DNA of 63,992 nt, counting the filler, from an uncultured Methanosarcinales archaeon (lineage in GTDB: Archaea; Nanobdellota; Nanobdellia; Woesearchaeales; CALCXY01): NCBI GenBank assembly GCA_964385185.1. It is 4 parts of 4 records of this genome, joined end to end, with 100 filler letters (N's around TTAATTAATTAA, not from the genome) between each part and the next. Parts side by side here need not be neighbours in the genome. Positions count along the whole stretch, not along the records: positions 1 to 26,077 come from CAYLOA010000015.1; positions 26,178 to 50,852 come from CAYLOA010000016.1; 2 more parts are not named here. The stretch is one strand, 5' to 3'. Positions 17,893 to 48,528 of this stretch are shown here, piece after piece. Under the pieces are notes generated by a model. That model did not search any database and was not told where the DNA came from. It was given only the letters and a program-made list of their open reading frames with translations. Each line of letters opens with the position of its first letter. Within the stretch, counting starts at the first letter, position 1. The position numbers were made by a program, and so were the translations under genes.

Positions 17893-17978
17893 CAGCTGGA
17901 CGATGCCCTTGCATTTCCAGCTAATGGTCTGGAAATGCAGAAGGGCAGGTTCACTGTGTGAACCACCAAGTCCAGCTG
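17893..17978 (+). repeat. Structured intergenic element, copy A (three-way junction)
   Basis: CAGCTGGAC/GTCCAGCTG closing stem; long hairpin with GA bulge; GGTTCAC-TGT-GTGAACC. Confidence 0.85.
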
Positions 17979-18012
17979 CAAAAAGAACAAGTCCAAAAAA
18001 GCCAACAAAAAA

Positions 18013-18582
18013 ATGAAAGATTTAACAAACTACTTTTTCGAAGTAGGAAACCTTCAAAGAGTTGCCAACTCAGGTTGGTGGCTAATTGGAGAAAAGAATC
18101 CAAACTCAGTTGCTGAACACGTTCATAGAGCTTCTACAATTGCATTCTGTCTTGCACACTTAGAGGATAAAGATCCATTTAAAGCATCATCAATTACCCT
18201 CTTCCATGACAATCATGAATCACGAGTAACTGATTTACATAAAGTAGCTCAAAAATATGTAGACTTAAAAAAAGTTGACGTAAAAGTCCTGCAAGATCAA
18301 ACATACAGTCTTCCAAATCAAATCAAAGAAAGCATTCAAACATTATTTAACGAATACCATACACAATCAACTGCTGAAGGTATTATTGCAAGAGATGCAG
18401 ATTTATTAGAGTACGGATTAAAAGCGAGAGAATTAATGGTGCAAGGGAATGTCGCAGCAAAAGATTGGCTAGACAACATTAACAAGTTAGTTAAAACAGA
18501 TTCTGGCATCAAACTAGCAAAATCATTATACAAAGCCGACCCAAATGATTGGTGGAAAGATCTGAAGAACATAAAAAGATAA
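18013..18582 (+). CDS. HD-domain phosphohydrolase (YfbR/HDDC2-like)
   Basis: SVAEHVHR, LFHDNHE, ARDADLLE. Confidence 0.85.
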   Translation: MKDLTNYFFEVGNLQRVANSGWWLIGEKNPNSVAEHVHRASTIAFCLAHLEDKDPFKASSITLFHDNHESRVTDLHKVAQKYVDLKKVDVKVLQDQTYSLPNQIKESIQTLFNEYHTQSTAEGIIARDADLLEYGLKARELMVQGNVAAKDWLDNINKLVKTDSGIKLAKSLYKADPNDWWKDLKNIKR

Positions 18583-18583
18583 A

Positions 18584-19219
18584 ATGCTAGACATCCTCAA
18601 TAAAATTCATTGGCTTGGACATTCTTCTTTCATTATCGAACCTGATAAAACAATAATCCTTGACCCGTTCAAAATCACCACAGAAAAGAAAGCAGACATT
18701 CTATTCATTTCTCACGAACACTATGATCACTGTTCACCAGATGATATTGAAAAAGTAATACAACCCTCAACAATCATTGTCACTGTCCCTGGAAATCAAT
18801 CCAAAATTGCACCTTTCGCAGAGCAAGTTGCAGATGTAAAAATTGTAAAACCCGGAGATTCCTTAGAAATAGATAACATCCACATCCTAGTAACTCCTGC
18901 TTACAATACTAACAAAGATTTCCACCCTAAAGCAAACGATTGGGTCGGATTTATATTAACAATAGACGATACAAAAATCTATTACGCTTCAGATACAGAC
19001 GTAATAGACGAAATGCAAACGATAGAATGTGATATAGCCATCCTTCCTATTTCAGGAAAATTTGTTATGACGCCAGAAGAAGCTGCAGAAGCAACTAAAA
19101 TTCTAAATCCAAAAGTAGCCATCCCCATGCATTATGGAGATATCATTGGAACAGACGAAGATGCTAAGAAATTCGAATCATTATGTGAATGCGATGTTAA
19201 AATATTAGATAAAAATTAA
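18584..19219 (+). CDS. Metallo-beta-lactamase fold hydrolase
   Basis: WLGHSSF, SHEHYDH, IPMHYG. Confidence 0.9.
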   Translation: MLDILNKIHWLGHSSFIIEPDKTIILDPFKITTEKKADILFISHEHYDHCSPDDIEKVIQPSTIIVTVPGNQSKIAPFAEQVADVKIVKPGDSLEIDNIHILVTPAYNTNKDFHPKANDWVGFILTIDDTKIYYASDTDVIDEMQTIECDIAILPISGKFVMTPEEAAEATKILNPKVAIPMHYGDIIGTDEDAKKFESLCECDVKILDKN

Positions 19220-20310
19220 CCAAACTTCTTCCCAATATCTTTACGAACCTTCTCAAAACTGCCCTTCTCAATCCCTTCCCTTATAGAATCCATCAACCTC
19301 TGCATAAAATACAAATTATGATAGCTACAAAGTCGATATCCAGTAGGTTCATTCATCCTCATCTGATAAGAAAGAAAAGCACGTGAAAAGTTCTTACACA
19401 CATAACAATCACAATCCTTATCCAACGCCTTAGAATCTGTCCGAAAAGCAGCATTTTTAATCCTAATCTTACCTTTAGAAGTAAACAACGTCCCATGTCT
19501 AGCATTCTGTGTATGATACGCCGAATCAAAACAATCAACTCCTGCACCAACAGCCTCAACAATATCAGCTGGATTGCCCACACCCATTAAATATCTTATT
19601 TTACTATCATCAAGTTCTTTAATACTCGTCTGCATAGCCTTGACCATTTTAGCATGTCCTTCACCTAATGCCAATCCACCAATAGCAACTCCATCAAAAT
19701 CTAAAGAATCTATAAACTGTGCACTCTTCTTCCGAACATCTAAATGCAACCCTCCTTGACAAATTCCAAATATCTTCTGTTTCTTAATTTTATACTGTAA
19801 ACATTCTTCTGCCCATCGATGCGTTCTATCAAGAGACTTCTCTACATCTTTCTTTCCAGCTTTTACAGAAGGCATATCATCCAAACACATGGCAACATCC
19901 GATCCAAGAGCTTGTTGAACCTGCATAGCATCCTTCGGAGTGTACAAAAACTTATTGCCATGCCAAGGATTGGTAAACACAATACCATCTTCCTGACTTT
20001 TTACATAGAAACTTTCCCTATCAGCCTGAAACCCTCCAGAGTCAGTAAAAATGACACCATCAAAACCACTAAACCTATGTAATCCTCCAACCTTCTCAAC
20101 AATATCAACTCCAGGGTTCAAAGATAACACTAACGAATTTGAAATCCAAGCTCCAGTTCCAATCTCTGATAAATCTTGGGGCGTAATACACTTAACACTC
20201 CCCTTAGTAGCACAAGGCATTAAGAAAGGTGTCTTCACCTTCCGACCATTGACTGACAACTCCCCACTTCTACCATCATTCTTAGAATCTGTTTCCTTAA
20301 TCGTGAACAT
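19216..20310 (-). CDS. tgt: tRNA-guanine transglycosylase, bacterial (queuosine)-type architecture
   Basis: TDSGGFQ, GICQGG, IGGLALGE, RYLMGVG, Zn site CDCYVC..H; 364 aa, no PUA domain. Confidence 0.85.
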   Translation of the reverse strand: MFTIKETDSKNDGRSGELSVNGRKVKTPFLMPCATKGSVKCITPQDLSEIGTGAWISNSLVLSLNPGVDIVEKVGGLHRFSGFDGVIFTDSGGFQADRESFYVKSQEDGIVFTNPWHGNKFLYTPKDAMQVQQALGSDVAMCLDDMPSVKAGKKDVEKSLDRTHRWAEECLQYKIKKQKIFGICQGGLHLDVRKKSAQFIDSLDFDGVAIGGLALGEGHAKMVKAMQTSIKELDDSKIRYLMGVGNPADIVEAVGAGVDCFDSAYHTQNARHGTLFTSKGKIRIKNAAFRTDSKALDKDCDCYVCKNFSRAFLSYQMRMNEPTGYRLCSYHNLYFMQRLMDSIREGIEKGSFEKVRKDIGKKFG

Positions 20311-20387
20311 ACAAATATAAACTGATTCGTAATTTATAAAGTTACCTCACAATAACCTTTATATACATCCAGCCACTTCTTTAACCT

Positions 20388-22151
20388 ATGAAATATAGAA
20401 CACATACCTGCAACCAATTAACAAAAGCTGATGTAGGTAATAAAGTAATCTTATCAGGTTGGAATTCTACAAGAAGAGATCATGGTGGATTAATATTCAT
20501 AGATTTAAGAGATAGATACGGTTTAACACAAGTATCATTTGATCCAACAAAAAACAAAGATGCACATGCAACAGCAGAAAAACTCTCCAGAGAAGATGTA
20601 ATCACAATCCAAGGAACCGTACAACCAAGACCTGACGGTATGACAAACAAGAACCTACAAACAGGAGAAATTGAAGTCATAGCAGAAAAATTAGAAATTT
20701 TCAGTAAAGCAACAACACCTCCTATCGAAGTTGATGACAGAGTCATTGCAAATGAAGAGACAAGACTCAAATACAGATATCTAGATCTAAGAAGACCAAC
20801 TATGATTAAGAACCTAGCATTTAGAGACAAATGTGCAATTGCAGCAAGATCATTCTTCCACCAAAACGATTTCCTAGAGATTGAAACACCTCTTTTAGTA
20901 AGGGCAACACCAGAAGGTGCAAGAGATTACGTCGTACCAAGCAGAACCGTTCCAGGAACTTTTTTCGCACTACCACAATCACCACAATTATACAAACAAA
21001 TTCTAATGGTTGCAGGAATGGATAAATATTTTCAATTTGCAAGATGCCTAAGAGACGAAGATTTACGTTCAGATAGACAACCGGAACATACACAAATGGA
21101 TCTAGAAATGTCATTTGTAACAGCAGAAGATATCATGGAATTCGTAGAAGGCTTATTCAAACATATCACAAAAGAAGCAGCAGGAATTGAAATTAAAGAA
21201 CCATTTGTAAAACTAACCTATGACGAATCCATGAAATTATACGGAACAGACAAACCTGACCTCAGATTCAAATTAGAATTAACAGACGTCACAGATATTG
21301 TAAAAGATTCAGATTTTCAAGTATTCCAAAACGTAGCAAAAGACGGCGGATTAATTAAGTGCATAAATCCAGAACAAGATCTTCCAAGAAAAGAAGTAGA
21401 TGCTTTAATAGATTTCTGCACACAAGCAGGAGCTAAAGGAATGGCTTGGATGAGAGTAACTAAAGACGGCCTAGAGTCAAACATTGCTAAATTCTTTGAC
21501 AAAGAAACACAAACAAAACTTATTGAAGCAACCCAAGCAAAAGAAGGATCCATGTTAATGTTTATAGCAGACAAACCTGCAACAACCAATGCAGTCTTAG
21601 CAGCATTAAGAAATCACTTAGGAGAAAAACTATCCTTAATCGCACCTAATCAATTTTCATACTGTTGGGTAACAGATTTTCCACTATTCGAATTCAATGA
21701 AGAAGAAAATAAATGGGATGCCTGTCATCACATTTTCTCAAGTCCAAAAAAAGAACATATTAAACACCTAGAAACAGATCCAGGAAAAGTATATGGAGAT
21801 CTATTTGACATTGTCCTAAACGGTACAGAAATGGGATCAGGATCTATTCGAATTTCACAGCCAGCTTTACAAAAGCAAATCATGAAAGTAATAGGTTTCG
21901 ACGAAAAAGAAGCAGAACATAAATTCGGATTCCTCCTCAACGCCTACAAGTACGGAGGACCACCTCATGGAGGAATGGGACTCGGTTTTGACAGATTAGT
22001 AGCAATGCTCCTAGGATATACAGACATTAGAGAAGTAATCACCTTCCCTAAAAACAAGAATGCTGAAAACCCTATGGATGGCTGCCCTTCAAACATCACA
22101 GAACAACAAGCTAAAGAATTATACTTAAAGTCAACAGTAGCCAAGAAATAA
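20388..22151 (+). CDS. aspS: Aspartyl-tRNA synthetase, bacterial type (probably non-discriminating)
   Basis: YRTHTC, RRDHGG, PQSPQLYKQ, GAD-like insert, PPHGGMGLGFDR; 587 aa. Confidence 0.93.
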   Translation: MKYRTHTCNQLTKADVGNKVILSGWNSTRRDHGGLIFIDLRDRYGLTQVSFDPTKNKDAHATAEKLSREDVITIQGTVQPRPDGMTNKNLQTGEIEVIAEKLEIFSKATTPPIEVDDRVIANEETRLKYRYLDLRRPTMIKNLAFRDKCAIAARSFFHQNDFLEIETPLLVRATPEGARDYVVPSRTVPGTFFALPQSPQLYKQILMVAGMDKYFQFARCLRDEDLRSDRQPEHTQMDLEMSFVTAEDIMEFVEGLFKHITKEAAGIEIKEPFVKLTYDESMKLYGTDKPDLRFKLELTDVTDIVKDSDFQVFQNVAKDGGLIKCINPEQDLPRKEVDALIDFCTQAGAKGMAWMRVTKDGLESNIAKFFDKETQTKLIEATQAKEGSMLMFIADKPATTNAVLAALRNHLGEKLSLIAPNQFSYCWVTDFPLFEFNEEENKWDACHHIFSSPKKEHIKHLETDPGKVYGDLFDIVLNGTEMGSGSIRISQPALQKQIMKVIGFDEKEAEHKFGFLLNAYKYGGPPHGGMGLGFDRLVAMLLGYTDIREVITFPKNKNAENPMDGCPSNITEQQAKELYLKSTVAKK

Positions 22152-22198
22152 TACTCTATCTACGCAAGCATTAAATACCACACAGCAACCTAAATCAT

Positions 22199-22873
22199 AT
22201 GCCAAAAATTTCAATAATTATACCAGCATTCAATGAAGAGAAATATATAGAGAAAACGATCCAAAAAATAAAAAAATCCACAATAAAAGATTATGAAATC
22301 ATAGTAGCACTAGACTCCTGTACCGATAATACAGAAAAAATAGTAAAAAAGCTCAATGTAAAATACATAAAAGTTAATGCAAGAAAAGCCAGTGCAGCAA
22401 GAAACGCAGGAGTAAAACTAGCAAGAGGAGAAATTTTAGTATTCTTAGACGCAGACACATTAATACCAAAAGAACTACTAGAAGAACTTCCTGAAACAAT
22501 GAAAACCTGCACTATAGCTACTTGCAAAGCAGAACCAGACGTTAAGAAATTCTTAACATCATTATTAATCAAAGCAAAAGATCTCGTTATTTCAATGGGA
22601 TTAATAAAAACATCAAATGGAATTATTATAACAACTAATAAAATATTCAATAAAGTCGGTGGATTCCCACTCCTACCCTATCATGAAGATGGTGTATTCA
22701 TTCGAGCCGCAGCAAAACTAGGAAAATTCACATTCTTAAGCAACCACATTGTAATCCAATCCATGAGAAGATACATCATCCTAGGGTACATCACCCCACT
22801 TTTATTCTGGGGCATAGAATGGGTTAAAGGATTGTTCAATAAACGATCTAAAATCTACCCTGCAGCAAGATAA
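22199..22873 (+). CDS. Glycosyltransferase family 2
   Basis: ISIIIPAFNEE, FLDAD, ED motif. Confidence 0.9.
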   Translation: MPKISIIIPAFNEEKYIEKTIQKIKKSTIKDYEIIVALDSCTDNTEKIVKKLNVKYIKVNARKASAARNAGVKLARGEILVFLDADTLIPKELLEELPETMKTCTIATCKAEPDVKKFLTSLLIKAKDLVISMGLIKTSNGIIITTNKIFNKVGGFPLLPYHEDGVFIRAAAKLGKFTFLSNHIVIQSMRRYIILGYITPLLFWGIEWVKGLFNKRSKIYPAAR

Positions 22874-22890
22874 TTTCTTCACAAGACAGT

Positions 22891-22973
22891 TACTGGACTG
22901 TGCACTTACATTTCCAGCTAATGGCTGGAAATGTAGAGGGGCAGGTGCTCTGTGAGCACCAAAAAGTCCAGTG
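22891..22973 (+). repeat. Structured intergenic element, copy B (three-way junction)
   Basis: Homologous to copy A with compensatory changes; GGTGCTC-TGT-GAGCACC. Confidence 0.85.
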
Positions 22974-23046
22974 CGGCCGTTATTAAGTCCAACGTTCCAA
23001 AATTCTAACCAAAACCTATTTATACATACATCAACCACTAAAGATT

Positions 23047-23331
23047 ATGAATGTAGACGAAGACTTACTAAGAAACGTTGCTAAACTAGCACGTCTAAAG
23101 TTAACAAAAGAGGAAACAATAACATTCTTACCACAATTAAATGAAGTCCTAGACGTTTTCTCAAAACTAGAAGAAGTCAACACAGATAACACTAAATCAA
23201 GCTTCCAACCAGTCCCTCTAAAAAATGCATTAAGAGAAGACAAACCAACAGTATGTAACACTCAAGAAGAAGTACTCAAACTAACTGATCACAAAAAAGA
23301 CGGCTACTTTAAAGGACCAAAGGCAGTATGA
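23047..23331 (+). CDS. gatC: Asp/Glu-tRNA amidotransferase subunit C
   Basis: VAKLARL, LRED, GYFKGP; precedes gatA. Confidence 0.92.
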   Translation: MNVDEDLLRNVAKLARLKLTKEETITFLPQLNEVLDVFSKLEEVNTDNTKSSFQPVPLKNALREDKPTVCNTQEEVLKLTDHKKDGYFKGPKAV

Positions 23332-24719
23332 TTTCAGAATTTATAAAAAAAATACAGTCAGGTGAAATCGACGTAGTTGAACATACAAATAAAGTCTTAG
23401 AGCAAACACATAATCTAAACAACGAATTCCATCACTTAAATATAATCTCAGAAGAATTAGCCCTATCACAAGCACATAAACTAAAAAAAGCACCTAAAGG
23501 AAGACTGGCAGGTCTACCCATCTCAGTCAAAGACTCCATAATAGTAAAAGACGTAGAAAGCCGTGGAGGTTCTAAAATACTCTCAGGCTACAAACCTTTA
23601 TTCAACGCAACAGTCATAAACAAACTCCAAGCAGAAGGAGCAATAATAATCGGAAAAAATGCTCAAGATGCTTTCGGATTTGGATCATTCTCAACTAATG
23701 TAGGTCTAGACCTCCAAACACCCTTAAATCCAAATGACAAAACACGAGCTTGTGGTGGTTCATCAGGAGGTTCTGCAGGATTAACAAAAGCAGCAACATT
23801 CCCTCACACATCACTTGGAGAATCAACAGGAGGTTCTATTGTAGCTCCCGCATCTTTTTGTGGAGTCTACGGTCTTTGTCCCACCTATGGAAGAATATCC
23901 AGAAACGGGTTAATGGCATACGGAAACTCACTAGACAAAATTGGCCCGATGGCAACTTCTCCAGAAGACTTAGCATTAATACTAGAAATCATCTCAGGCC
24001 ATGACAAATTAGAATCAACCTCTCTAAATAACCCAGTCCCAGACTTTACAAAGGAAATCACAAACACTACAAAACTCAAGGTAGGAATTATCTCAGAGAC
24101 GGTGGGAGAAGGAACAGACCCAGCCATAGCAGACAATATCCAAGCCATCGCATCAAAATTAAATGCCACAAAAGTTTCCCTCCCAACCACCCATAAATAT
24201 GGTGTACCCACATATATGCTCCTTGCAACTTCAGAAGCTTCAACAAATCTAGCAAAATACTGCGGAATGCGATACGGCCAACACGAAAAACTAGAAGGGT
24301 CGTTCAACGACTACTTCACTAAGGTAAGATCCAAATACTTCAACGAAGAAACTAAACGAAGAATTATAATTGGAACGTTTGCACGAATGGCAGGATTCAG
24401 AGACGCATTCTATCTAAAAGCTACAAAAGTAAGAACAAAAATCATAGAAGAATACAAAAAACTCTATAAAACCTACGACATCTTGATCAGCCCCACAATG
24501 CCTATTGTAGCTCCCACATTCAAAGAAATTGAGCAACTCACCCCTCTCCAAAATTACATGATGGACATAATGACAGTAGGGCCTAATCTTGCAGGACTCC
24601 CGCACATAAACATTCCATCAGGAACACATAACAACATGCCGATAGGACTCTTAGCAACTTCCAATCACTTAGAAGAATCTAAACTCTTACAATTAGCTCA
24701 TCAACTCAAAAATGGATAA
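23328..24719 (+). CDS. gatA: Asp/Glu-tRNA amidotransferase subunit A
   Basis: Amidase signature ISVKD, GGSSGGS, TGGS; SEASTNLAKY. Confidence 0.93.
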   Translation: MISEFIKKIQSGEIDVVEHTNKVLEQTHNLNNEFHHLNIISEELALSQAHKLKKAPKGRLAGLPISVKDSIIVKDVESRGGSKILSGYKPLFNATVINKLQAEGAIIIGKNAQDAFGFGSFSTNVGLDLQTPLNPNDKTRACGGSSGGSAGLTKAATFPHTSLGESTGGSIVAPASFCGVYGLCPTYGRISRNGLMAYGNSLDKIGPMATSPEDLALILEIISGHDKLESTSLNNPVPDFTKEITNTTKLKVGIISETVGEGTDPAIADNIQAIASKLNATKVSLPTTHKYGVPTYMLLATSEASTNLAKYCGMRYGQHEKLEGSFNDYFTKVRSKYFNEETKRRIIIGTFARMAGFRDAFYLKATKVRTKIIEEYKKLYKTYDILISPTMPIVAPTFKEIEQLTPLQNYMMDIMTVGPNLAGLPHINIPSGTHNNMPIGLLATSNHLEESKLLQLAHQLKNG

Positions 24720-26077
24720 CAAAATTAAAATTGGCTTAGAAATCCACGTCCAACTAAACACAGTTACCAAACTATTCTGTGGGTGTCCTACTCAAGGAGA
24801 AGACACTCCAAATACAAGAACGTGTCCAATCTGCCTTGGCCATCCAGGATCAAGACCTGTCCTAAACAAAGCAGCCGTCGATTTTGCATTAAAAATGTGC
24901 TTAGCAACAGATTGCAAAATATCCAAAGAACTTATCTTCTCTAGAAAATCATATTTCTATCCAGACATGTCAAAAAATTATCAAATTACACAATACGAAA
25001 TACCTTTAGGAGAAAAAGGAAAAATAACATTAAATAACAAAACAATCAACTTAACAAGAATTCATATGGAAGAAGATCCAGCAGCCTTAGTTCATCAAGG
25101 AGATATGGCAACCTCTCCATTTGTCTTAGTAGACTACAACCGTTCTGGAAACCCGTTAATAGAAATTGTAACAGAACCCGACATGAACTCAGCAAAAGAA
25201 GCAAGAGCATTTATGAACAAATTAATCACCATCTTAGAATATCTAGAAATTTTTGACATTAACACCTGCATAATAAAAGCAGATGTAAATGTATCCATCC
25301 AACCACATAAAAGAGTTGAAATAAAAAACGTTACAGGATTTAAAGAGATTCAAAAAGCAATTGAATACGAACTCAAACGACAAGAAGACCCTGCAACACA
25401 TGAGGAAAATATTCACACAAGAAATTGGGACTCTGACCAAGCAATTTCTTCAAAATTAAGAGAAAAAGAATCCGAAGAAGAATACGGATATATTATCGAC
25501 CCAGACTTAACAATTACAGACATAACAGCTGACATGATAAAAAAGACAAAGGAACACATGCCAGAACTAGCTGAATCAAAAATTGCAAAATTCCAGGAAA
25601 AACTCAACATAGCAGAAGACGATGCCAAAATAATTGCAACAGATAAATCCATGGCAGAACTCCTAGAAAGAGTAGCAAAAGTCATCGATCCAGTCCTCGC
25701 CGGAAAATGGATTAGAAGAGAGCTAAACCGTGTCTTAAATTATAATAAAAAATCACTAAAAGAAATTTCTTTAGATGAACCAAACTTCATCAAACTCTTA
25801 AAATTAATCGAAAAGAAAACAATAACAGACTCCACAGCCCAAAAACTCCTAGAAATATTCATAACAAAACCTTTTGATCCAGAAGTCTACGTCAAAGAGC
25901 AAGGCCTTGAAGCAGTCTCAGACTCCTCCCAAATTGAAGAATTCGCAGAAGAAGCAGTGAAGGAAAACCCAGAAGCAGTACAAGATTACAAGAGTGGAAA
26001 CGAAAAGGCCCTCCATTTCATAGTGGGACAAGTAATGAGAAAATCCAAAGGCCAAGCCACACCTGCTGAAGTGAATG
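24712..26077 (+). CDS. gatB: Asp/Glu-tRNA amidotransferase subunit B (3' end cut by contig end)
   Basis: IGLEIHVQL, YFYPD, HMEED, DYNRSGNPLIEIVTEPD, GQVMRKSKG. Confidence 0.95.
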
Positions 26078-26177
26078 NNNNNNNNNNNNNNNNNNNNNNN
26101 NNNNNNNNNNNNNNNNNNNNNTTAATTAATTAANNNNNNNNNNNNNNNNNNNNNNNNNNNNNNNNNNNNNNNNNNNN
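26078..26177. other. Artificial contig-joining linker
   Basis: N-run + TTAATTAATTAA (stops in all frames) + N-run, 100 nt. Confidence 0.95.
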
Positions 26178-26222
26178 TTTAGCAGACTAGATATATGTTA
26201 ATTTGGGCTCTAAAAAAATTGG

Positions 26223-26317: not shown

Positions 26318-27139
26318 ATGGATAGACTGGATAACACCGAAACTGAGATTGAGGATATTATCGTTCAAGAGTGTAAGCTCAAAGGATATTCACAAAAGAC
26401 GATAAATACTTATCTGCACCACATTAAGAAATTTGTACTTTCTGAAAAAACACCAAGAGAATTCCTTCTTGGATTGATTGCGAAAGATAATTCTGATGAA
26501 ACAGTTAGATCTGCAAGTTTTGCAATTAAATTCTATCTAAATACTATAAAAAAGGAGAGTTCAGAAATTCAAGACGTTCTAGATAATTTACCAAATGTAA
26601 AAAGAGAAAAGAAACTTCCAGTAATACTTTCAAAAGAAGAAATTGAAAGACTTATATCATCTACAAAAAATATGAATCATAGGCTAATTATTCAGATAGG
26701 ATACTCAGCAGGTCTGCGAATCAGCGAGATAATAAACCTTAAATGGCAGGATGTGGATTTTGACAGAAACCTGATTCATTTGAAAAGAGCAAAAGGAAAA
26801 AAAGACAGAATTGTTATGCTCTCTTTGAAAGTTAAAGAGGGTTTAATGAATCTGACGCCCAATAAAGAAGGATATATCTTCTTGACAAATAGAGGCGGAA
26901 AATACACACAAAGAACAATACAGAAAATCATTAAGAACGCAGCTATAAATGTAAGCATAAGAAAGAATGTGACCCCTCACACATTAAGACATTCTTTTGC
27001 AACTCATCTATTGGAAAATGGAACAGATATACGATACATTAGGGATTTATTAGGACATTCAGATATTAGTACCACACTAATATATACAAAAGTTTCAAAC
27101 AAGAATATTTGCAACATTAAAAGTCCGTTGGATGGTTAA
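26318..27139 (+). CDS. Tyrosine recombinase, IntI/Xer-like (SPLD C-terminus, no IntI insertion)
   Basis: GYSQKTINTY, KLPVILSKEE, GLRISE, KGKKDR, HTLRHSFATHLLE, LGH..TTLIY, KSPLD. Confidence 0.92.
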   Translation: MDRLDNTETEIEDIIVQECKLKGYSQKTINTYLHHIKKFVLSEKTPREFLLGLIAKDNSDETVRSASFAIKFYLNTIKKESSEIQDVLDNLPNVKREKKLPVILSKEEIERLISSTKNMNHRLIIQIGYSAGLRISEIINLKWQDVDFDRNLIHLKRAKGKKDRIVMLSLKVKEGLMNLTPNKEGYIFLTNRGGKYTQRTIQKIIKNAAINVSIRKNVTPHTLRHSFATHLLENGTDIRYIRDLLGHSDISTTLIYTKVSNKNICNIKSPLDG

Positions 27140-30063: not shown

Positions 30064-30065
30064 GT

Positions 30066-38366: not shown

Positions 38367-38411
38367 GGCACTCTCAGAGTGCCCACTCTCGCAGTCTTAC
38401 GACTGCGAGTG
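38367..38411 (-). repeat. Double-hairpin intergenic element, copy C
   Basis: + strand GGCACTC-TCA-GAGTGCC then CACTCTCGCAGTC-TTAC-GACTGCGAGTG. Confidence 0.85.
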
Positions 38412-39609: not shown

Positions 39610-40297
39610 CTTCGCACTCAGGATATTCTTCTTCAAAATTTGTACAAATTTCTTTTAACAACGTATCTCTGTCTTGTAGACCATTGAAGTTTTTGTTCTC
39701 AATAGCTACGGTAGGATATTCTGATACATTGTATACCTTTTTCAGTATAGGGATGAATGGTTCTTGCTCGAATTGTCCGTCAAATGAGAAAATTAACAGT
39801 CTATCTGTGAATACTCTTTTTAGATAGGTTAAGACGGTTCCTTGATTGGTGCAATCTGCACAATCTGCGTCATTCGAGAAAAAATAGAATGCCGTGACGA
39901 TATCTCTATTACATATTTCTTGAGTTGACTTTGCTAGTATGTAGTATCTTACTTGGGAGATAATATATTGACGTTTTAGATGGGTGTATGCTTTTTCATT
40001 TATCTGAGATGATTTTACAAAATTTTCTAATTGTTTTCTCGTATCCTCGAGCTCTTGGACATTTGCTTCAAACGTTTGTTCTACCGCAGCACATGAACGA
40101 TTATCTTTGGTAAATGAGACATAGAGATATTGAGCTTGGAGCGATTCAAAGTCTATTGCTTGTTCTGTTGCTGCTTCTTGTAGAAACTTAACTCTCTCTG
40201 AAGTGAGTTGGGATCCTATTAAGATTCCAATCGTGAAAAAGCATAGTGTTAGGATGAATGCTGTAATGTGTCTCTTTACGTTTAGTTTTCTTCTCAT
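39593..40297 (-). CDS. Membrane-anchored thioredoxin-like protein
   Basis: N-terminal TM; YFFS..CADC..QG..L; YPTV. Confidence 0.6.
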   Translation of the reverse strand: MRRKLNVKRHITAFILTLCFFTIGILIGSQLTSERVKFLQEAATEQAIDFESLQAQYLYVSFTKDNRSCAAVEQTFEANVQELEDTRKQLENFVKSSQINEKAYTHLKRQYIISQVRYYILAKSTQEICNRDIVTAFYFFSNDADCADCTNQGTVLTYLKRVFTDRLLIFSFDGQFEQEPFIPILKKVYNVSEYPTVAIENKNFNGLQDRDTLLKEICTNFEEEYPECEAIPLP

Positions 40298-40343
40298 ATT
40301 AGTATCTTCAAAAATTTCCTGGTATATATTACTGTAGTATTTA

Positions 40344-41600
40344 TCACCATTTTTGTATTTTTCCTCTCATAAAATCGAATGCGATTCCCACCCATACAAT
40401 GGTGAGTAGGAATGAATAGAGTATTAAATATGCTGGAACAGCAAGTCTTCCTCTAGATTTCCATGATTCTTTTGTATATATGTGTGCGAAATATATAATA
40501 ATCATACCTAATGAAAAAATGACAAAAGCATAAAATACATTGGTGTAGTTTACTTGGATAAAGGAAAAATTAAATTGATATCCTTTTATGAGTGTGATGA
40601 TGTCAAAATTGATATACGCTAATGAAGCCATATATTTGTATGCAGGTTTGATTAAGTCATGGATGGCAATGGTTATGAGGACTAGGGCTAGAATTCCTGC
40701 CGACATGACTCTTGGTGCATGTTGCATTCCAAACTCTTCATATTTTTTGTTGAACATCAAGCCACGGTAACGCCACATGTTAATTAATGATCCTTTGTAC
40801 CATCTATTTCTTTGGCTATAGAATTGGGAAAATTTCTTAGGAGCAATAGTCAATACTTCTGCGTCTAATGTTTGGACAATTCGGTAATGATGTTTTTGTA
40901 GGCGGAGAGTAATTTCAAGATCTTCTGTTAAGTTGTGTTCGTCAAAACCTTTTAGTTTTTTTAGGACTTCTGTTCTGTATACTGAGAAAGGTCCTGGAGA
41001 AACATGGACACAGTCTAAGATTGCCATGAGTTTCTTGTAGAAAAAATTGATAAGGTATTCTGACCATTGGACCTTTTGAAGGAAATTAGTTGTTTCTTTT
41101 AATTTCATTAAAGGTAAGACGGTTGCAATGTCAGGAGCATCAAAATACGGGAGAAGAATTTTTAGGGTATCTTTTCTTGGTTCTGAATCTGCATCGAGGC
41201 AGACAAAAAATTCTCCCTTGGTTTCTTTTAGTCCTGCGTTTAATGCTGCACCCTTTCCTTTATTTTTTTGTGTTATGAGTTTAATATTATAGAGAGGGTG
41301 ACTGTTGATATATTCCTCAGTTATTTTCTTTGTGTTGTCTGTTGAACCGTCGTTGATTACGAGAATTTGTAATTTATCCTTGGGATATTCCATATTGATT
41401 ACTGAATTTAAGGTGTCTGCAATTGATTCTTCTTCATTGTATGCAGGAATAACTATACTTGTTAAGGGGAAAGAATGTAATTTCTTTTTTACGGTGTATT
41501 TATCTGGATCTTCATCGAGAAGGACTAATAACCAGAAAATTAGAAAATAGGAGGCTATAAGAAACGCAATCCAGACTGCTATTTCGCTGAGTAGTAACAT
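40344..41600 (-). CDS. Processive GT2 glycosyltransferase (cellulose/hyaluronan/PNAG synthase-like)
   Basis: DGSTD, DAD, TED, QRNRW; flanking TM helices. Confidence 0.88.
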   Translation of the reverse strand: MLLLSEIAVWIAFLIASYFLIFWLLVLLDEDPDKYTVKKKLHSFPLTSIVIPAYNEEESIADTLNSVINMEYPKDKLQILVINDGSTDNTKKITEEYINSHPLYNIKLITQKNKGKGAALNAGLKETKGEFFVCLDADSEPRKDTLKILLPYFDAPDIATVLPLMKLKETTNFLQKVQWSEYLINFFYKKLMAILDCVHVSPGPFSVYRTEVLKKLKGFDEHNLTEDLEITLRLQKHHYRIVQTLDAEVLTIAPKKFSQFYSQRNRWYKGSLINMWRYRGLMFNKKYEEFGMQHAPRVMSAGILALVLITIAIHDLIKPAYKYMASLAYINFDIITLIKGYQFNFSFIQVNYTNVFYAFVIFSLGMIIIYFAHIYTKESWKSRGRLAVPAYLILYSFLLTIVWVGIAFDFMRGKIQKW

Positions 41601-41627
41601 TTTTGGGTAGGTTGTTTGGATATGGCT

Positions 41628-42935
41628 TTATTTTACTTGCCAGATCTCTACTCCTTGAGCTGAATAAACGTTTTTAAAGGTTTCGTCATTACGTAATAAG
41701 AAGAGTAATCCTTCATCTGGTTGGTTCCAGACGAGACCATTTTTCATTTCTTCGTCTATGAAGATGTATTCTATTTCTGATTGTGATATTAACTGTATTG
41801 CTTTCTCTAGATTTCTCGTGTGGAGTAATTCTTCGGGATTTGTGATGGTTTTTTTCTGGGCTATAGCTTGAATCCAGTAATTTCGAGAAGGATGGGAGAG
41901 GACAGTGTAGAAATGTGGTTCATCATCTAATAACCACTCTAAAGCTTCAATCTGTTCTGGATGAGGAGAGGTTTTTGCAATTGTTGAGAGAAAAGTAACG
42001 TTGGCTATGATTATTCCAATTATAATAAGGTATAGTGATAATTTTTTTAATCTTGGAAGTTCCCATGTTGATGTCATGACAGAGAGTAAACCGAAGGCTG
42101 CTAAAATGTGGATAGGGATGTAGAGATAGATGGAGGCTTCTGGAATCCAGAGAGTTATGGTTGCTATTATTATGAGGAAAATAAATAGTGAATAGTAGGA
42201 CTTCTTCTTTTTCCAGAGATAGAGGAGTCCGAGGATGGCTAATAATAAGTAAAAAAGACTTAATCCATACCAAGATCCTAGTTCGACGAATAAATTTGAA
42301 ATTCTTGGTAAGAGTTGAGGCATGGGGTATTTGTAGTATACTTGAAGAATGACAGTTTGTAATGTAAGGAAGATTGCTATGAATGGAGCATGGGAACAGG
42401 TTTTCTTTTTAGCAACGGCAAACGAGATGAGCAGGATTATGGTGCAGATGGCATAGACTCTGCCCATGAAAGGGATGGTAGCTAGTAGTAAGGTTGCTAT
42501 AATTGAGTTTCTCAGAGTTCCTGAAACCATAAGGTAGATTGATGCAACGGTTATGAGTAAGATTAACGGTAGAGGTGATGAAAAATAAATTAATGAGAGA
42601 TAGAACGGTGTGAAGATGAGCATAATCATGGAGAGATTCCTTATTTCAGAGTCTAATCCTAACTTTGAGAGGAGTGAAGGGAGTATTAATAGGGTGAGAA
42701 TTGTTAAGATGGAGGGGAGGATGATTGAGAGGAGGAATGGTGATAGAGATAGTAAATTATGGTAGAGATTTGGGGAAAGACTGGTGAGTGATTCTGCTGT
42801 TGCTAGGTGAAGATACGATTCAGCTCCTGGCAGAGTGGGTGATAATGTGAGCCTTAGTGCTAAAAGTATGAGGGGTATGAGTATTAAAATGGTGTACTGG
42901 ATTGCTTTGGGATTATTTTTTAATACATCTTTCAT
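41628..42935 (-). CDS. Multi-TM GT-C/STT3-like membrane protein
   Basis: About 11 TM plus soluble C-domain EALEWL..VLS. Confidence 0.6.
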   Translation of the reverse strand: MKDVLKNNPKAIQYTILILIPLILLALRLTLSPTLPGAESYLHLATAESLTSLSPNLYHNLLSLSPFLLSIILPSILTILTLLILPSLLSKLGLDSEIRNLSMIMLIFTPFYLSLIYFSSPLPLILLITVASIYLMVSGTLRNSIIATLLLATIPFMGRVYAICTIILLISFAVAKKKTCSHAPFIAIFLTLQTVILQVYYKYPMPQLLPRISNLFVELGSWYGLSLFYLLLAILGLLYLWKKKKSYYSLFIFLIIIATITLWIPEASIYLYIPIHILAAFGLLSVMTSTWELPRLKKLSLYLIIIGIIIANVTFLSTIAKTSPHPEQIEALEWLLDDEPHFYTVLSHPSRNYWIQAIAQKKTITNPEELLHTRNLEKAIQLISQSEIEYIFIDEEMKNGLVWNQPDEGLLFLLRNDETFKNVYSAQGVEIWQVK

Positions 42936-44428
42936 ATGACTTCCTCAACTTTGCATAATACTTCGAAAATTCTCACTTCGTCATTTTTGTAGACTGTTTT
43001 TAGGCATTTTCTATCAAAAATATCTAATTCGTGAATTTGGTAGTATTCTTTTATTGATTCTGAGAAGATGATGTAGTTAACATTGTATTTTGCCGTTATA
43101 GTGTAGGCTTCTGTTTGTGAAAATGTGGTATAGAGTCTTTCAATATCTTGAGCTCTTTGCTGGGTGTTTGCTATCATTAAAAAATTTGAATCCATTACAT
43201 TTTTTCTTTTTCCTAGATGGGTGATAAGATGACCATCGTCAATCTTTGAGAGGATGATTGATGATTCTGGTGTGTTTTGTAACCAGGTGAATGCTTCGAT
43301 TTCATTATCTGAATACGCTTCTGAAGTTGTTTGTGCACCTAGTACTATTGCAGGGAGGATGGATGTTAGTAGGAAGGATGTGAAGATTAATGCTAAGAAG
43401 TATGATTCCCACTTGGCAAACTTTGTTTTTTGGATGTAGTTGATCGATAGTTTGAATCTTTGTGCAAAGAGGAGGAGAAGGACTGATCCTAGGATCATTA
43501 ATCCAGAAGTGAAGGGGATGAGTTTAAACCAGAGGAGGATACCTGCTGCGAAAACAAATGAGATGAAGAGATAGATGTTTTTTTGATGTTCTCTGAATAA
43601 ATATCTGTATATTACGTAGATTCCATAGAATAAGGGGATGAGTCCAATTTGATAGGTTGCTTGAAGTAATGTAAAATCTTGGAAATAGTTTTGGAGTAGA
43701 CTTGGAGGGATGTTTAATGTTAGTAATTGTGTTCCATGGAGGAGTAAAGCGTTTCTGAAAATTAAGAATTGTGAGAATATTATGAATAAGGTTGAGAAGA
43801 TCATCACTTCGTTTTCTGCTTGATTTGTTTGGAGACCTTCCACTTTGATAAAAATATAGTAGAGGACAAATGCTAAGATGTAGATTATTGAGGATGGATG
43901 GAGGAGGGCGATTGCTGATATGGTGAGGGCTGCTTTTATTCCATACTTTTTATCATGTTTAATATTTACGAAGTAGTAGAGTGAGAGGAAGAGTAAAGGT
44001 ATGATAAGAGAGAATACTGAGATGTCGTTTAGGGTAGTTACAAAGAAGATTGGGATGAAGGGTGAGATGACTGCTCCTAATAATGCAATGTTTTCGTTGT
44101 TTGTGGATTGTATTACTAATCTGTATATAATGAAGACTATTGAGGAGATGAAGATGTTAGGTAGGATTTTTGCAACTAGATGTAATGGTAGGAAAACGTT
44201 GAAAAATGCTAAGACGTACATGAATAATGGATTGAATAATAACGTTCTTCCTGCATGACTTAGGGTGTCTGTGAATAATGGAATTCCCTGATGTGTGATG
44301 TGTTCCACTTGTCTTAGAATGAAGTAAGCGTTATCTGAGGAGAAGTTTGCAGTTGAGAAGGCAAACTTTAGTCTTATGGCTAATGTTAAAGCGAAAATAA
44401 GCCATAATAGGAAGGTTGAACGTTTCAT
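42932..44428 (-). CDS. Multi-TM GT-C/STT3-like membrane protein
   Basis: AYFILRQVE, many TM, C-domain EAFTWL..ILS..GHLI..D. Confidence 0.65.
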   Translation of the reverse strand: MKRSTFLLWLIFALTLAIRLKFAFSTANFSSDNAYFILRQVEHITHQGIPLFTDTLSHAGRTLLFNPLFMYVLAFFNVFLPLHLVAKILPNIFISSIVFIIYRLVIQSTNNENIALLGAVISPFIPIFFVTTLNDISVFSLIIPLLFLSLYYFVNIKHDKKYGIKAALTISAIALLHPSSIIYILAFVLYYIFIKVEGLQTNQAENEVMIFSTLFIIFSQFLIFRNALLLHGTQLLTLNIPPSLLQNYFQDFTLLQATYQIGLIPLFYGIYVIYRYLFREHQKNIYLFISFVFAAGILLWFKLIPFTSGLMILGSVLLLLFAQRFKLSINYIQKTKFAKWESYFLALIFTSFLLTSILPAIVLGAQTTSEAYSDNEIEAFTWLQNTPESSIILSKIDDGHLITHLGKRKNVMDSNFLMIANTQQRAQDIERLYTTFSQTEAYTITAKYNVNYIIFSESIKEYYQIHELDIFDRKCLKTVYKNDEVRIFEVLCKVEEVI

Positions 44429-44494
44429 AGTAGATAATTGTTATTGTTGGTATTTAAAGGTTAGGGATTGTTTTAAAGGGGCTAAAACGGAAAT

Positions 44495-44539
44495 GGCTTG
44501 CACAGCAAGCCGACTCTCGCAGTCTTACGACTGCGAGTT
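44495..44539 (-). repeat. Double-hairpin intergenic element, copy D
   Basis: + strand GGCTTGC-ACA-GCAAGCC then GACTCTCGCAGTC-TTAC-GACTGCGAGTT. Confidence 0.88.
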
Positions 44540-44604
44540 GCGTTGTTATTGTTTGGTCTATTTTCATGGTAATGTATATAAACTTTGGACTGTTGTTATA
44601 GTTT

Positions 44605-45282
44605 ATGGAGAGGGTTAATTCTGGGAGTGAGGAATTTGATGCATTTCTGAGTGGAGGGTATGAGACTGATTGTATTACTGCAATCTACGGCCCTGCAGGG
44701 AGTGGAAAAACTACTCTTTGTTTGTTAGCGGCTATAGGTGCTGTGAAAAGAGGTAAGAAAGTACTCTTTGTTGATACTGAAGGAGGGATTAGTGTTGATC
44801 GATTAGGACAATTAGCCTCTGGGGATGGGAGTATTTTAGAACATTGTTTGTTTTTACGGCCTACAACATTTGTTGAGCAAAAAAAACAGATTGAAAAGAT
44901 AAAAGATATGGTTTCTGATAGTATTGGACTTATTGTATTAGATACAATTGGAATGTTGTATCGTGTAGAGAGAGGACAGAGTTATGATCCCTATGAGATT
45001 GATAATGCTCTTGAGAGTCAGATTAGTAGTTTGAGTGAGATTGCGAGAGTTAAGAAAATACCAGTTTTGATTACCAATCAAGTGTATGATAATCTTAAAA
45101 CTGATAGTGTGAAAATGGTCGGTGGAAATTTATTAGGATATAGTGCCAAGTGTTTGGTAGAGTTGAAGAATTTGACCGGTGGAAAGATTGCATTTTTACG
45201 AAAACATAGAAGTCTTGAAAATAGAGAGATGCCGTTTAAGATTATAGAATCTGGATTACAGGTTGAGAAAAAAATAATTTAA
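44605..45282 (+). CDS. radB: DNA repair protein RadB
   Basis: GPAGSGKT, VDTEGG, TNQVY, C-terminal KHRS. Confidence 0.92.
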   Translation: MERVNSGSEEFDAFLSGGYETDCITAIYGPAGSGKTTLCLLAAIGAVKRGKKVLFVDTEGGISVDRLGQLASGDGSILEHCLFLRPTTFVEQKKQIEKIKDMVSDSIGLIVLDTIGMLYRVERGQSYDPYEIDNALESQISSLSEIARVKKIPVLITNQVYDNLKTDSVKMVGGNLLGYSAKCLVELKNLTGGKIAFLRKHRSLENREMPFKIIESGLQVEKKII

Positions 45283-45545
45283 GGTAAAGGTCTTCTTTTT
45301 AGGATAATTGCTGTAATGATTGCTCCTACAGATAGGATTATTGCAGCGATTGTGAAATCGTGTGATTTTACTATCTTTTCTATAACTGGGATTTGATGGC
45401 AAGCATAATCAGAACCACAATAAAATCCTTCTTCACAGTCTGTGTTTGAATTACAATCTCTCGATTCTATGGTTACATAGTATCCAATTATGAGTATGAT
45501 GATAAGTCCAAAGATAAAGAATCCTGCATTTGCTTTTTTGTTCAT
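45279..45545 (-). CDS. Small 2-TM protein with Cys-rich loop
   Basis: DCNSNTDCEEGFYCGSDYACH between TM segments. Confidence 0.65.
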   Translation of the reverse strand: MNKKANAGFFIFGLIIILIIGYYVTIESRDCNSNTDCEEGFYCGSDYACHQIPVIEKIVKSHDFTIAAIILSVGAIITAIILKRRPLP

Positions 45546-45631
45546 TAAATAGGAGAATCAGGGGGCTTTTTTAAGGATTTGTATTTATAATTTAACAGTT
45601 AACTTTATAAATACCCTCAGAGTTACTATCT

Positions 45632-45688
45632 TTATTACCGATACTGCTAAGGTGATAAATATGCAGCATCTTCTTAGTACGGTAATGG
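45632..45688 (+). promoter_or_regulatory. Structured 5' leader of rps2
   Basis: ATTACCG/CGGTAAT and TGCTAAGG/TCTTAGTA stems between the TATA box (45604) and ATG. Confidence 0.5.
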
Positions 45689-45698
45689 ACATGTTAGA

Positions 45699-46298
45699 AT
45701 GGCTGAAAAAGAACTATTAGTATCACAGGATCAGTACCTAAAATCAGGTATCCATATTGGAACTAAGTTTAGGACTAAGTATATGGCGAGATTTATCTAT
45801 AAAACTCGACCTGATGGTCTTAGTGTATTAAATCTTCAAGAAATAGATGAACGAATCAAAGTTGCAGCTCAATTTCTTGCTCAGTATGAATCAGAAGACA
45901 TCCTAATTGTAAGTCGAAGAGAAAATGGATGGAAAGGAGTAAAATTATTTGGAGAATTAACTGGAGCTAAAACTTTTCCAGGACGATACCCTCCGGGCGT
46001 TATGACTAATCCTAATTTGAACAAATTTATAGAGCCAAAGATTGTTTTAGTAACTGATGTTTGGCCTGATAAGAATGCAGTAATTGATGCAGTTAAGATT
46101 GGAATTCCAGTTCTTGCTATGTGTGATACAAATAATCAATGTAATAATATTGATTTGGTTATTCCCTCTAATAACAAAGGTAAAAAATCACTAGGATTAT
46201 TCTTCTATATCTTAACAAGAGAAGTTCTTCGAGCTAAAGGTAAATTAAAACCTGATGAAGAGCTTAAGCAGACTATTGAAGATTTTACTGAAGAATAA
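45699..46298 (+). CDS. rps2: 30S ribosomal protein S2 (archaeal)
   Basis: YLKSGIHIGT, RPDGL, GRYPPG, CDTNN, IPSNNKG. Confidence 0.95.
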   Translation: MAEKELLVSQDQYLKSGIHIGTKFRTKYMARFIYKTRPDGLSVLNLQEIDERIKVAAQFLAQYESEDILIVSRRENGWKGVKLFGELTGAKTFPGRYPPGVMTNPNLNKFIEPKIVLVTDVWPDKNAVIDAVKIGIPVLAMCDTNNQCNNIDLVIPSNNKGKKSLGLFFYILTREVLRAKGKLKPDEELKQTIEDFTEE

Positions 46299-46668
46299 AT
46301 TCTGTTAAGGTTGTACTATATGATTCTCTTTGGAGTGTAATTTTTGTAGTTATGGTTGCTTTATTGTTTTCTATGGTTACAATTATGGGTTCTTCTTGAG
46401 TGATCGTTATTGTAGGGAATAATTCATTGTTTATACATGTTTCAAATGCTCTTTGTAGGAGGATGGGGTTGTTTTGAAACTTCTCTTCTAGGCAAGTGTG
46501 TAGGTAATCATTTACTTGGGCAAAATCTTTTGCATTTGTAGTTTTTATATTGTATGCTTGGCCTGTTTTGAGGTCAGTTGTTGTATCTATAGTTATGAAG
46601 ATGAATAAGAGTGAAGCTGTTACTATGATTGCTAATGTTAAGTAGAGTGTGATTAGCTTTGTTTGCAT
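46285..46668 (-). CDS. Hypothetical protein with N-terminal TM
   Basis: Hydrophobic N-terminus; TATA box upstream. Confidence 0.5.
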   Translation of the reverse strand: MQTKLITLYLTLAIIVTASLLFIFITIDTTTDLKTGQAYNIKTTNAKDFAQVNDYLHTCLEEKFQNNPILLQRAFETCINNELFPTITITQEEPIIVTIENNKATITTKITLQRESYSTTLTEFILQ

Positions 46669-46738
46669 ATAAGATATTAATTCGAGAAATATTTAAATCT
46701 AGCTATTCTTAAAAAAAAGAAAATAAAAAATTAGAAAT

Positions 46739-47205
46739 TTATTCTTTCTTTGGTTCTTCAGTTTCTTCTGGAGATTCTTCAGCTGGTTCTTCAGCAGGAG
46801 NNNNNNNNNNNNNNNNNNNNNNNNNNNNNNNNNNNNNNNNNNNNNNNNNNNNNNNNNNNNNNNNNNNNNNNNNNNNNNNNNNNNNNNNNNNNNNNNNNNN
46901 GATTCTTCAGCAGGTTCTTCTGGAGATTCTTCCATAGGTTGTGCTTCTTCAGTTGATTCTTCAGCAGGAGCGTCTGATTCAACTGCACCTTCTGCGTCGC
47001 CAACTTTTTCTGCGAAACCTACTTTTCTCAGAACTCTGGTTATTTTAATTCTTACTTCGTCTCCCTCGTTTACACCAGGTACGAACAGAACAAAACCGTC
47101 CTTCTTTGCGATACCGTCTCCTTTGGCACCAACTGCTTCTATTTTTACATCTAATTCGTCGCCTTCTCTTACTGGTGGCGTCATTCCAGGTCTTTCGTCA
47201 TACAT
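46739..47205 (-). CDS. TRAM-domain protein with acidic Glu/Pro tail (spans scaffold gap)
   Basis: PPVREG..GAKGDGIAK..GFVLFVPG; after the gap the tail reads PAEEPAEESPEETEEPKKE-stop at 46739. Confidence 0.85.
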
Positions 47206-47279
47206 TTATATTCACCTTTATTGTCTTTACATTTCTTATGAAATGCATAGAAGTTAGTGGTTAGAATATGTTTATAAAG

Positions 47280-48413
47280 TTATTTGTTTTGTTCCCAAGC
47301 TTCCTTTACTGCTTTAGCTATAACTGGGACAACGTCTTTATTTGTTGCGTAAGGTAGAATTTCATCTTCTGTTGGATTTTCGATTATTCCTGCTAGGGCA
47401 ATTGCTGCTGCTAGCTTCATATCTTCTGTGATTTTAGTTGCTTTAGCTTCAAGAGCACCTCGAAATATTCCTGGAAATCCTAGTACGTTGTTTACTTGGT
47501 TTGGAAAGTCGGAACGGCCCGTTGCAATTACTTTTGCTCCTGCTTCTTTTGCTAAATCTGGTAGTATTTCTGGATCTGGATTTGCCATGGCCATGATTAT
47601 CGGAGAGGTGTTCATTGATTGAACCATTTCTTTTGAGACGCAATTTTTTACTGAAAGACCAATGAAAATATCTGAGTTTTTTAATGCTAATTCTAGATTA
47701 CCTGATTGATCTGTTGTGAATTCAGCTTTGTATTCGTTTACATCTGTTCTTTCTTTTGAAATAATTCCTTTTGAGTCTAGTAAAGTGATGTTTGTAATTC
47801 CGTAATTTTTTAACATCTTTCCTACTGCAATACCTGCAGCTCCAGCACCGTTGATTACTACCTTTGCTGATTTGTCTTTGTTTGTGACTTTTAAAGCGTT
47901 GATAATTGCTGCTAAACAGACTACGGCTGTTCCGTGTTGATCATCGTGCATCACTGGAATACCTAAGTCTTGTAATTGCGCTTCTATTTCAAAACATTTA
48001 GGAGCTTTAATGTCTTCTAAATTAATTCCTCCAAATCCGGGAGCAATGTTTTTTGCTATAAGGATAATTTCCTCTTGATCTTGGGTTGTAGTGCAGATGG
48101 GAAAAGCATCAATATCTGCGAAAGCTTTGAATAATGCACATTTTCCTTCCATGACTGGTAGGGATGCTTCAGCTCCAATATTGCCTAGGCCTAGGACTGC
48201 TGAGCCATCTGAGATAACTGCTACCGTATTTCCTTTGAATGTATATTTGTAGACGTCTTCTTTGTTCTTTGCTATATATCTGCAAGGTTCTGCTACACCT
48301 GGAGTGTATGCTAGTGATAGGTCTTCTTTTGTGTTTAAAGGCATTTTTAAGGAGATTGCTAGTTTGCCTTTTTGTTTCTCATGTAATAGAAGAGATTCTT
48401 GTTGTGTATCCAT
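47280..48413 (-). CDS. Malic enzyme (NAD(P)-dependent)
   Basis: LAYTPGVA, DGSAVLGLG, INLEDI, HDDQHGT, GAGAAG, FPGIFRGAL. Confidence 0.93.
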   Translation of the reverse strand: MDTQQESLLLHEKQKGKLAISLKMPLNTKEDLSLAYTPGVAEPCRYIAKNKEDVYKYTFKGNTVAVISDGSAVLGLGNIGAEASLPVMEGKCALFKAFADIDAFPICTTTQDQEEIILIAKNIAPGFGGINLEDIKAPKCFEIEAQLQDLGIPVMHDDQHGTAVVCLAAIINALKVTNKDKSAKVVINGAGAAGIAVGKMLKNYGITNITLLDSKGIISKERTDVNEYKAEFTTDQSGNLELALKNSDIFIGLSVKNCVSKEMVQSMNTSPIIMAMANPDPEILPDLAKEAGAKVIATGRSDFPNQVNNVLGFPGIFRGALEAKATKITEDMKLAAAIALAGIIENPTEDEILPYATNKDVVPVIAKAVKEAWEQNK

Positions 48414-48484
48414 TTAGAGTTGGATTGGTTGTAAGTTTAAAAGAGTTTTGTAATAGAGAATTGGAGAAATACGAAAAAGGTAAT

Positions 48485-48528
48485 GGCTTGCACAGTAAGC
48501 CGACTCTCGCAGTCTTACGACTGCGAGT
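48485..48528 (-). repeat. Double-hairpin intergenic element, copy E
   Basis: One mismatch to copy D over the shared stretch. Confidence 0.88.

Follow-up and report, generated by a model that had tools for sequence, protein, structure and literature searches.

The window analysed here, a stretch of 63,992 nucleotides from an uncultured marine archaeon assigned to the Woesearchaeales (GCA_964385185.1), in part on the taxa of one protein, holds five copies, A to E, of a small element made of consecutive hairpins, the second of which is common to all five. It joins four contigs (C15, C16, C29 and C75, separated by runs of N at 26078-26177, 50853-50952 and 61925-62024) of a source genome, G000, that comprises 1.30 Mb in 85 contigs and is rated 100% complete; genes were called with a simple caller of our own and one gene was corrected by hand. 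The pattern of the shared hairpin, GG-N4-C-TG(T/A)-G-N4-CC, has exactly five matches in the window (17948, + strand; 22944, +; 38367, -; 44495, -; 48485, -), while shuffles of the window gave a mean of 0.28 and a maximum of 2. The first contig is C-rich on the plus strand and the second G-rich on the plus strand, so all five copies are read on the C-rich strand, confirming the single strand sense that had been noticed in a sequence-only reading of the window.

Copies A (17893..17978, +) and B (22892..22972, +) are designated type I. In copy A an outer stem encloses a long GA-bulged hairpin with a TAATG loop, together with the shared TGT-loop hairpin (17948-17964), which in copy B lies at 22944-22960. 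Copies C (38367..38410, -), D (44495..44538, -) and E (48485..48528, -) are type II, in which a first hairpin, with a GNRA loop in copy C, is followed by GAGAGT and the shared hairpin (38367-38383 with a TGA loop in C, 44495-44511 in D and 48485-48501 in E). Copy E has one A-C mismatch in this orientation, as previously noted, which reads as G-T on the other strand. The gene context was likewise as described: a stop codon precedes A, B, C and E, which are in sense, and D lies between divergent genes.

The sequence-only reading had given all five copies one architecture, a long hairpin with a two-nucleotide purine bulge followed by the second hairpin, and this held only in part. The second hairpin is common to all five, but the predicted minimum-energy fold of C, D and E has an unbulged 9-bp stem, and their GA-bulged register is an alternative fold only, in favour of which 20 of 22 type II copies have a purine facing the final T. 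The bulge of A and B lies one base farther from the second hairpin, and the pair adjacent to it is Watson-Crick in just 8 of 15 type I copies, so that it is often a 1x3 loop; the additional enclosing stem of A and B makes a three-way junction. Fold z-scores of the five copies range from -4.8 to -8.8 on the strand whose loop reads TGT (the TGT strand), and the opposite, ACA-loop strand folds nearly as well. Rfam returned no match for the elements and recognised only tRNAs, both in the window and in seven element loci.

A polarised, modular repeat family

A genome-wide search recovered 66 elements, bearing out the proposal that the five copies belong to a dispersed system; of the 50 loci that they occupy, 34 have a solo copy and 16 a doublet. 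All elements lie between genes or tRNAs, and the units are 44-86 nt long. Type I (n=15, including A and B) has the outer stem, the long bulged TAATG-loop hairpin and the shared hairpin; in type II (n=25, including C, D and E) the first hairpin has a GNRA or TAATG loop and is followed by GAGAGT and then the shared hairpin; and in type III (n=26), which is absent from the window, the stem of the shared hairpin continues past a C bulge and a triplet bulge. The four degenerate or interrupted elements of the 66 were excluded from pair counts. All three subtypes share the G-N4-C/TGT/G-N4-CC hairpin, the stem of which varies in sequence while pairing is kept: 370 of 372 cells of its core are Watson-Crick and none is G-T, across more than 10 stem variants, several of which are used by two subtypes. 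Types I and II are structurally linked, a relationship on which the sequence-only reading had depended, because the TAATG loop of type I recurs in 5 of 22 type II copies and subtypes have second-hairpin stems in common. The doublets are back-to-back in all 16 cases, and mixed subtypes occur among them.

Covariation exceeded that in all 500 of 500 shuffles in each of three alignments, although the copies are related and these figures are therefore not probabilities. One-sided pair changes are nearly absent. Arm-to-arm copying during replication could partly produce such perfect complementarity of the arms, so covariation alone is no proof of selection; the retained bulges and loop argue for selection on the fold. 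Counted on the TGT strand, wobbles comprise 25 G-T against 4 A-C, with 16 of the 25 G-T in two columns, and type II loops are mostly GNRA on this strand. Likenesses to group II intron domain V, the K-turn, the bulge-helix-bulge and SECIS elements were dropped on inspection.

Orientation was compared with strand skew, measured at fourfold-degenerate sites with coding bias removed, and with transcription. The TGT strand is C-rich at 33 of 34 solos (p 4e-9), which are in tandem-sense (12), tandem-antisense (7), divergent (14, including the sole exception) and convergent (1) contexts. All seven solos that run antisense to tandem neighbours follow skew and not transcription. The single orientation seen in the window extends across the genome. 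The large contigs have a single skew sign throughout, and the G-rich strand carries 561 of 941 genes as well as a ribosomal-protein cluster (identified by eye); skew thus appears to mark the replichore, with the G-rich strand leading. The TGT strand would then serve as template for the leading strand, and the ACA strand for the lagging strand. The repeat family is real, polarised and modular.

The context of the elements bears on whether they act through transcription. Four window copies, all but D, lie in sense after a stop codon, and pyrimidine-rich DNA is often found 3' of type II copies, as might be expected of intrinsic transcription terminators. Only 2 of 49 loci are in convergent gaps, which is not above background, the proportions of element contexts resemble those of empty large gaps, overlapping operon junctions are split with no promoter-like box downstream, and orientation is tied to skew; a terminator function is thus very improbable, and the earlier argument that termination alone does not suffice is upheld. 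The neighbours are largely housekeeping genes, and many elements stand upstream of a TATA-like box, with no fixed distance between the two (range 10-95 nt).

The elements might instead be structured RNA motifs carried on the TGT strand, such as mRNA stabilisers, processing sites or small RNAs. That strand bears the GNRA loops and the G-U wobbles, three-way junctions are formed by type I and by related elements in another genome of the order (G027, below), two type I copies lie in sense within formerly overlapping gene junctions, and 12 of 19 tandem solos are in sense where 82 of 209 would be expected from gene strand. This is an improbable account of the family as a whole: the 7 of 7 discordant solos go with skew, 14 of 34 solos lie between divergent genes, many elements are upstream of a TATA-like box, the core hairpin has no G-U pair, Rfam has no match and the subtype is not kept at the same gap.

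Empty, exchanged and nested sites in relatives

The congener G001 is 77% complete, and 1.09 of its roughly 1.6 Mb was read, so absence there is partial. Both flanking genes are adjacent in G001 at 22 of the 49 loci, and all 22 of these gaps lack an element, 10 of them differing simply in being 88-267 nt shorter; the 1.09 Mb contains no hairpin of this kind. Two type I sites correspond to overlapping gene junctions in G001, among them that of copy A, which splits a translin-like and an HD-like gene (names by eye). Among 150 other genomes of the order, none had a type I element, while type III gave weak matches in G027 alone among 150 genomes and in 0 of 150 in a class sample.

Of the 61 stretches returned by a scan of metagenomes, 38 were rejected as chance and 23 are true hairpins: 19 belong to the same species, and the other four, at 73-80% identity, to a sister species. 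No RNA data set was listed as a holder of the sequence. In the four sister-species contigs, which were chosen for carrying an element, the gap corresponding to a G000 element is occupied in 4 of 4, but the subtype, stem or order differs. Copy B, type I in G000, has a type II element with a different stem as its counterpart (L174), and unrelated DNA fills this gap in G001; elsewhere a III/III doublet corresponds to a single II, a solo II to a doublet and a III/II doublet to II/III. The sister contigs keep the order of the flanking genes, and both sister solos are likewise on the C-rich strand. In the comparison of filled and empty sites proposed in the sequence-only reading, 0 of 22 gaps are thus filled in the congener and 4 of 4 have exchanged content in the sister; for eight same-species runs, all assembled contigs, no skipped site was listed.

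A second module, made of two hairpins and about 55 nt long, interrupts some copies. In 4 of 4 occurrences (three in G000 and one in a sister copy) it lies within 0-5 nt of the CTGTG loop, and no free copy of the module was found. The host arms are mismatched in 3 of the 4 interrupted copies, the arms coming from different stem variants. There is no consistent target duplication: the longest flanking direct repeat averages 6.6 nt, as against 6.2 in controls, and flanking repeats of at least 9 nt occur at 5 of 50, all AT-rich.

Strict polarity with skew, together with the occupation of the same gaps in 4 of 4 sister contigs, would also be expected of replichore-polarised DNA signals kept by the host at fixed gaps, whose folded strand or cruciform a resident protein binds at the fork, in repair or in chromosome organisation, and which gene conversion or template switching, not transposition, homogenises. 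The scarcity of one-sided changes is compatible with arm-to-arm copying, no mobile enzyme was found (below), and a related element stands beside a sepF-like gene in G000, G027 and G212. This explanation is nevertheless unlikely: the elements are absent from 1.09 Mb of a congener that shares gene order, type I is in 0 of 150 genomes of the order and type III is weak in 1 of 150 and in 0 of 150 of the class sample, the nested and junction-splitting insertions resemble mobile DNA, and the sister contigs were selected for element carriage.

Wider pattern searches yielded mostly rejected candidates. The shared-hairpin pattern in 40 relatives gave counts similar to a reversed-pattern control in most (the highest being 13 against 5), and by eye none of the matches listed formed a complementary hairpin; the exact type II pattern had 0 matches in viral contigs, the single type III match in species genomes was not a hairpin, and a loose outer-stem pattern run over 400 genomes of the order gave mostly noise, with folded matches in G027 and G212 only. 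No conclusion draws on G132, G374 or G112, which belong to that set and are marked unpublished. In G027 and G212 the matches are three-way junctions with the same outer helix as type III, including its 3-nt bulge, and with other inner hairpins; there are about 11 in G027 (L222, L224-L232, L097) and two in G212 (L221, L223). One stands beside the sepF-like gene (by eye) in each of the two genomes, as a doublet does in G000. The element loci of G027 show almost no skew.

Other structured inserts were seen in the same comparisons. G001 has hairpin repeats of its own without a transposase (L260:3780-4120, L205, L293), one set being like IS200/IS605 ends by eye, and other structured inserts lie in gaps where G000 has elements. 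A separate two-hairpin insert family is present at L188:340-440 and in G000 at C11:18337-18371, C3:50052 and C28:4703; at L188 a further copy of the 3' end of the tRNA gene comes after the insert.

Search for an enzyme and proposed mechanism

The sequence-only reading had supposed that the elements were spread by an enzyme encoded outside the window, and had named RAYT, TnpA(Y1), a reverse transcriptase (RT) or an integrase flanked by copies as candidates; none was found in the window or the genome. Five integrase-family matches are present in G000, including two full-length XerA-like proteins: a tyrosine recombinase of 273 aa at 26318-27139 (+) in the window, at the start of the second contig and with no flanking element, and a 272-aa paralogue on C34. 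They score 192 and 207 against an integron-integrase cut-off of 265 (TIGR02249), and their best match is archaeal XerA. An HNH match in G000 was below threshold. Pfam searches of 49 proteins (47 of about 100 element neighbours and two integrases) and a list compiled by eye of 158 basic proteins without a match in the G001 pieces gave no candidate.

If one of the XerA-like paralogues were the enzyme, the elements could be attC-like sites for a tyrosine recombinase acting on folded single-stranded DNA (ssDNA). In common with such sites they have variable sequence, a conserved fold and unpaired bases on one arm, the strand favoured by wobbles would, like attC bottom strands, be on the leading-strand template, the genome has five integrase-family matches and in 3 of 4 interrupted copies one arm belongs to a different stem variant from the other. 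We consider this improbable, as attC R boxes (RYYYAAC...GTTRRRY) enclose 0 of 65 elements, both XerA-like integrases fall under the integron-integrase cut-off, the neighbours are largely housekeeping genes, doublets are inverted and not direct, and gene order flanking the sister elements is unchanged.

Several further genes were recorded during the search. A C-terminal integrase fragment occurs twice (L003:1103-2296 on C11 and L005:1489-2195 on C6), each time converging on a gene that starts MSSID and near tRNA genes; the L003 fragment comes directly after a purD-like 5' piece (by eye). A basic protein of 160 aa (L030:3476-3958, -), which falls in unnamed Woesearchaeota clusters, lies directly beyond a type III/II doublet. 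Contig C47 of G000 has a higher GC content (0.40) and terminase-like genes (by eye), and is possibly viral or mis-binned. The window also encodes a 567-aa open reading frame rich in Glu/Lys/Pro repeats (53433-55136, +) and three tandem paralogous small membrane proteins (15330-17403, -).

The explanation we prefer, with a probability of about one half, takes these repeats for non-autonomous ssDNA elements of a PATE/REP-like kind. They would have been spread at the replication fork by a strand-transfer enzyme that processes hairpins, most likely belonged to the Y1 type of IS200/IS605 and is now absent. Under this scheme a hairpin-recognising enzyme would insert and exchange modules at the fork. 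Orientation by skew against transcription points to DNA at the fork; the invariant loop and unpaired bases amid free stems suggest recognition by shape, whereby a protein would read the CTGTG loop and the unpaired bases on folded ssDNA; and the doublets, nesting and in-place exchanges suggest that existing copies would be preferred targets. The enzyme itself, most likely a Y1 HUH transposase of the IS200/IS605 type, would have been supplied in trans or lost since; Y1 transposases are present in 9 of 40 relatives searched. Such elements act on the lagging-strand template (PMC6006769), and the active strand under that rule would be the ACA-loop strand, on the lagging-strand template.

A number of results weigh against this explanation. 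G000 has no match to Y1_Tnp (PF01797) or to the REP tyrosine transposase RAYT (NF047646), no TnpB, RT, IS110 or resolvase gene was found in it, GIY-YIG (PF01541) has 0 matches, and HUH motif scans of the genome gave no candidate. The ends of the relatives' Y1 elements resemble type II only loosely, a CAGTC-N3/4-GACTG core with a 5-bp stem being found in two places. The sequence 5' of the hairpins shows no conserved tetranucleotide in types I and II, whichever strand is read, and is variable in type III. Stem variation far exceeds that within REP classes. G-T wobbles and GNRA loops favour the TGT strand, opposite to the IS200/IS605 expectation; the analogy with IS200/IS605 drawn in the sequence-only reading, taken literally, would make the other, G-rich strand the active one. 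Gain and loss relative to G001 are not polarised, and current mobility is not shown by same-species contigs: no joint skipping an element was among those listed from eight same-species runs of assembled contigs, in which rare variants are dropped, and the joints present are explained by other copies.

A bolder version of the preferred explanation, for now doubtful, would dispense with the known enzymes. On this view Woesearchaeota would carry an undescribed DNA-writing system, coupled to the fork, that recognises a triloop hairpin with a variable stem by its shape. The system would add modules next to or within existing copies and exchange copies on the spot while the flanking genes stay unmoved, by means of an enzyme outside Y1, RT, GIY-YIG, IS110 and IntI. 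The defined consensus, polarity rule and in-place exchanges provide a concrete substrate for an enzyme search.

Comparison with known systems

Even a 1.3-Mb genome appears to have gained about 66 structured inserts within one genus, some of them splitting overlapping genes. No report of strictly replication-polarised small hairpin repeats in DPANN archaea was found in a literature that took in few subscription journals. Proposed as an archaeal REP-like or structured-RNA family, the elements are indeed dispersed and oriented, but have neither the GTAG tag nor a RAYT, and the RNA option is weakened by the 7 of 7 skew cases.

The Ssn/NTS/SRM repeats are also oriented hairpin repeats, predicted to be read as ssDNA (PMC11893778). 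G000 differs in having no GIY-YIG gene, and the main text of the Ssn paper does not mention archaea; with 0 PF01541 matches in G000, membership of the Ssn/SRM group was rejected. The attC sites of integrons keep structure over sequence, have unpaired bases on one arm and are biased to the leading-strand template (PMC5371416; bioRxiv 10.1101/2022.02.06.479319), attC bottom strands lying on that template in 25 of 30 sedentary integrons (PMC5371416). The G000 family, in contrast, has no R boxes, IntI or cassette arrays, forms inverted doublets and is dispersed among housekeeping genes.

As described in four studies (PMC2817692, PMC3116915, PMC3686654, PMC6006769), REP, BIME and REPIN sequences are extragenic multi-copy hairpins with inverted doublets and mosaic units, as here, and REP classes are lineage-specific and able to outlast their enzyme. 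The G000 elements differ in lacking a 5' GT(A/G)G tag and a RAYT, in having more solos than doublets, and in their more variable stems, strict skew polarity and archaeal host.

The PATE and SMR-A repeats offer the archaeal parallel, being transposase-free, palindromic and without target duplication (PMC3119063). The PATEs of Haloquadratum walsbyi lack terminal repeats, move in one strain without an intact transposase and have palindromes that are targeted by small repeats, with different repeats at identical positions; both of these last features recall the nested and exchanged sites of G000. PATE palindromes match IS605-type ends in their own genome, whereas G000 has no IS605 element or TnpB; the stems of G000 vary freely round an invariant triloop; and the G000 family has replication-strand polarity, none being given for PATEs in the passages of PMC3119063 consulted. 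By analogy the family would work like PATE/SMR-A and REP/BIME repeats, but it has no REP tag or RAYT and neither the R boxes nor the IntI of attC systems. It bears on the question of what lets REP-like and PATE/SMR-like repeats multiply and endure in genomes that have no transposase of their own.

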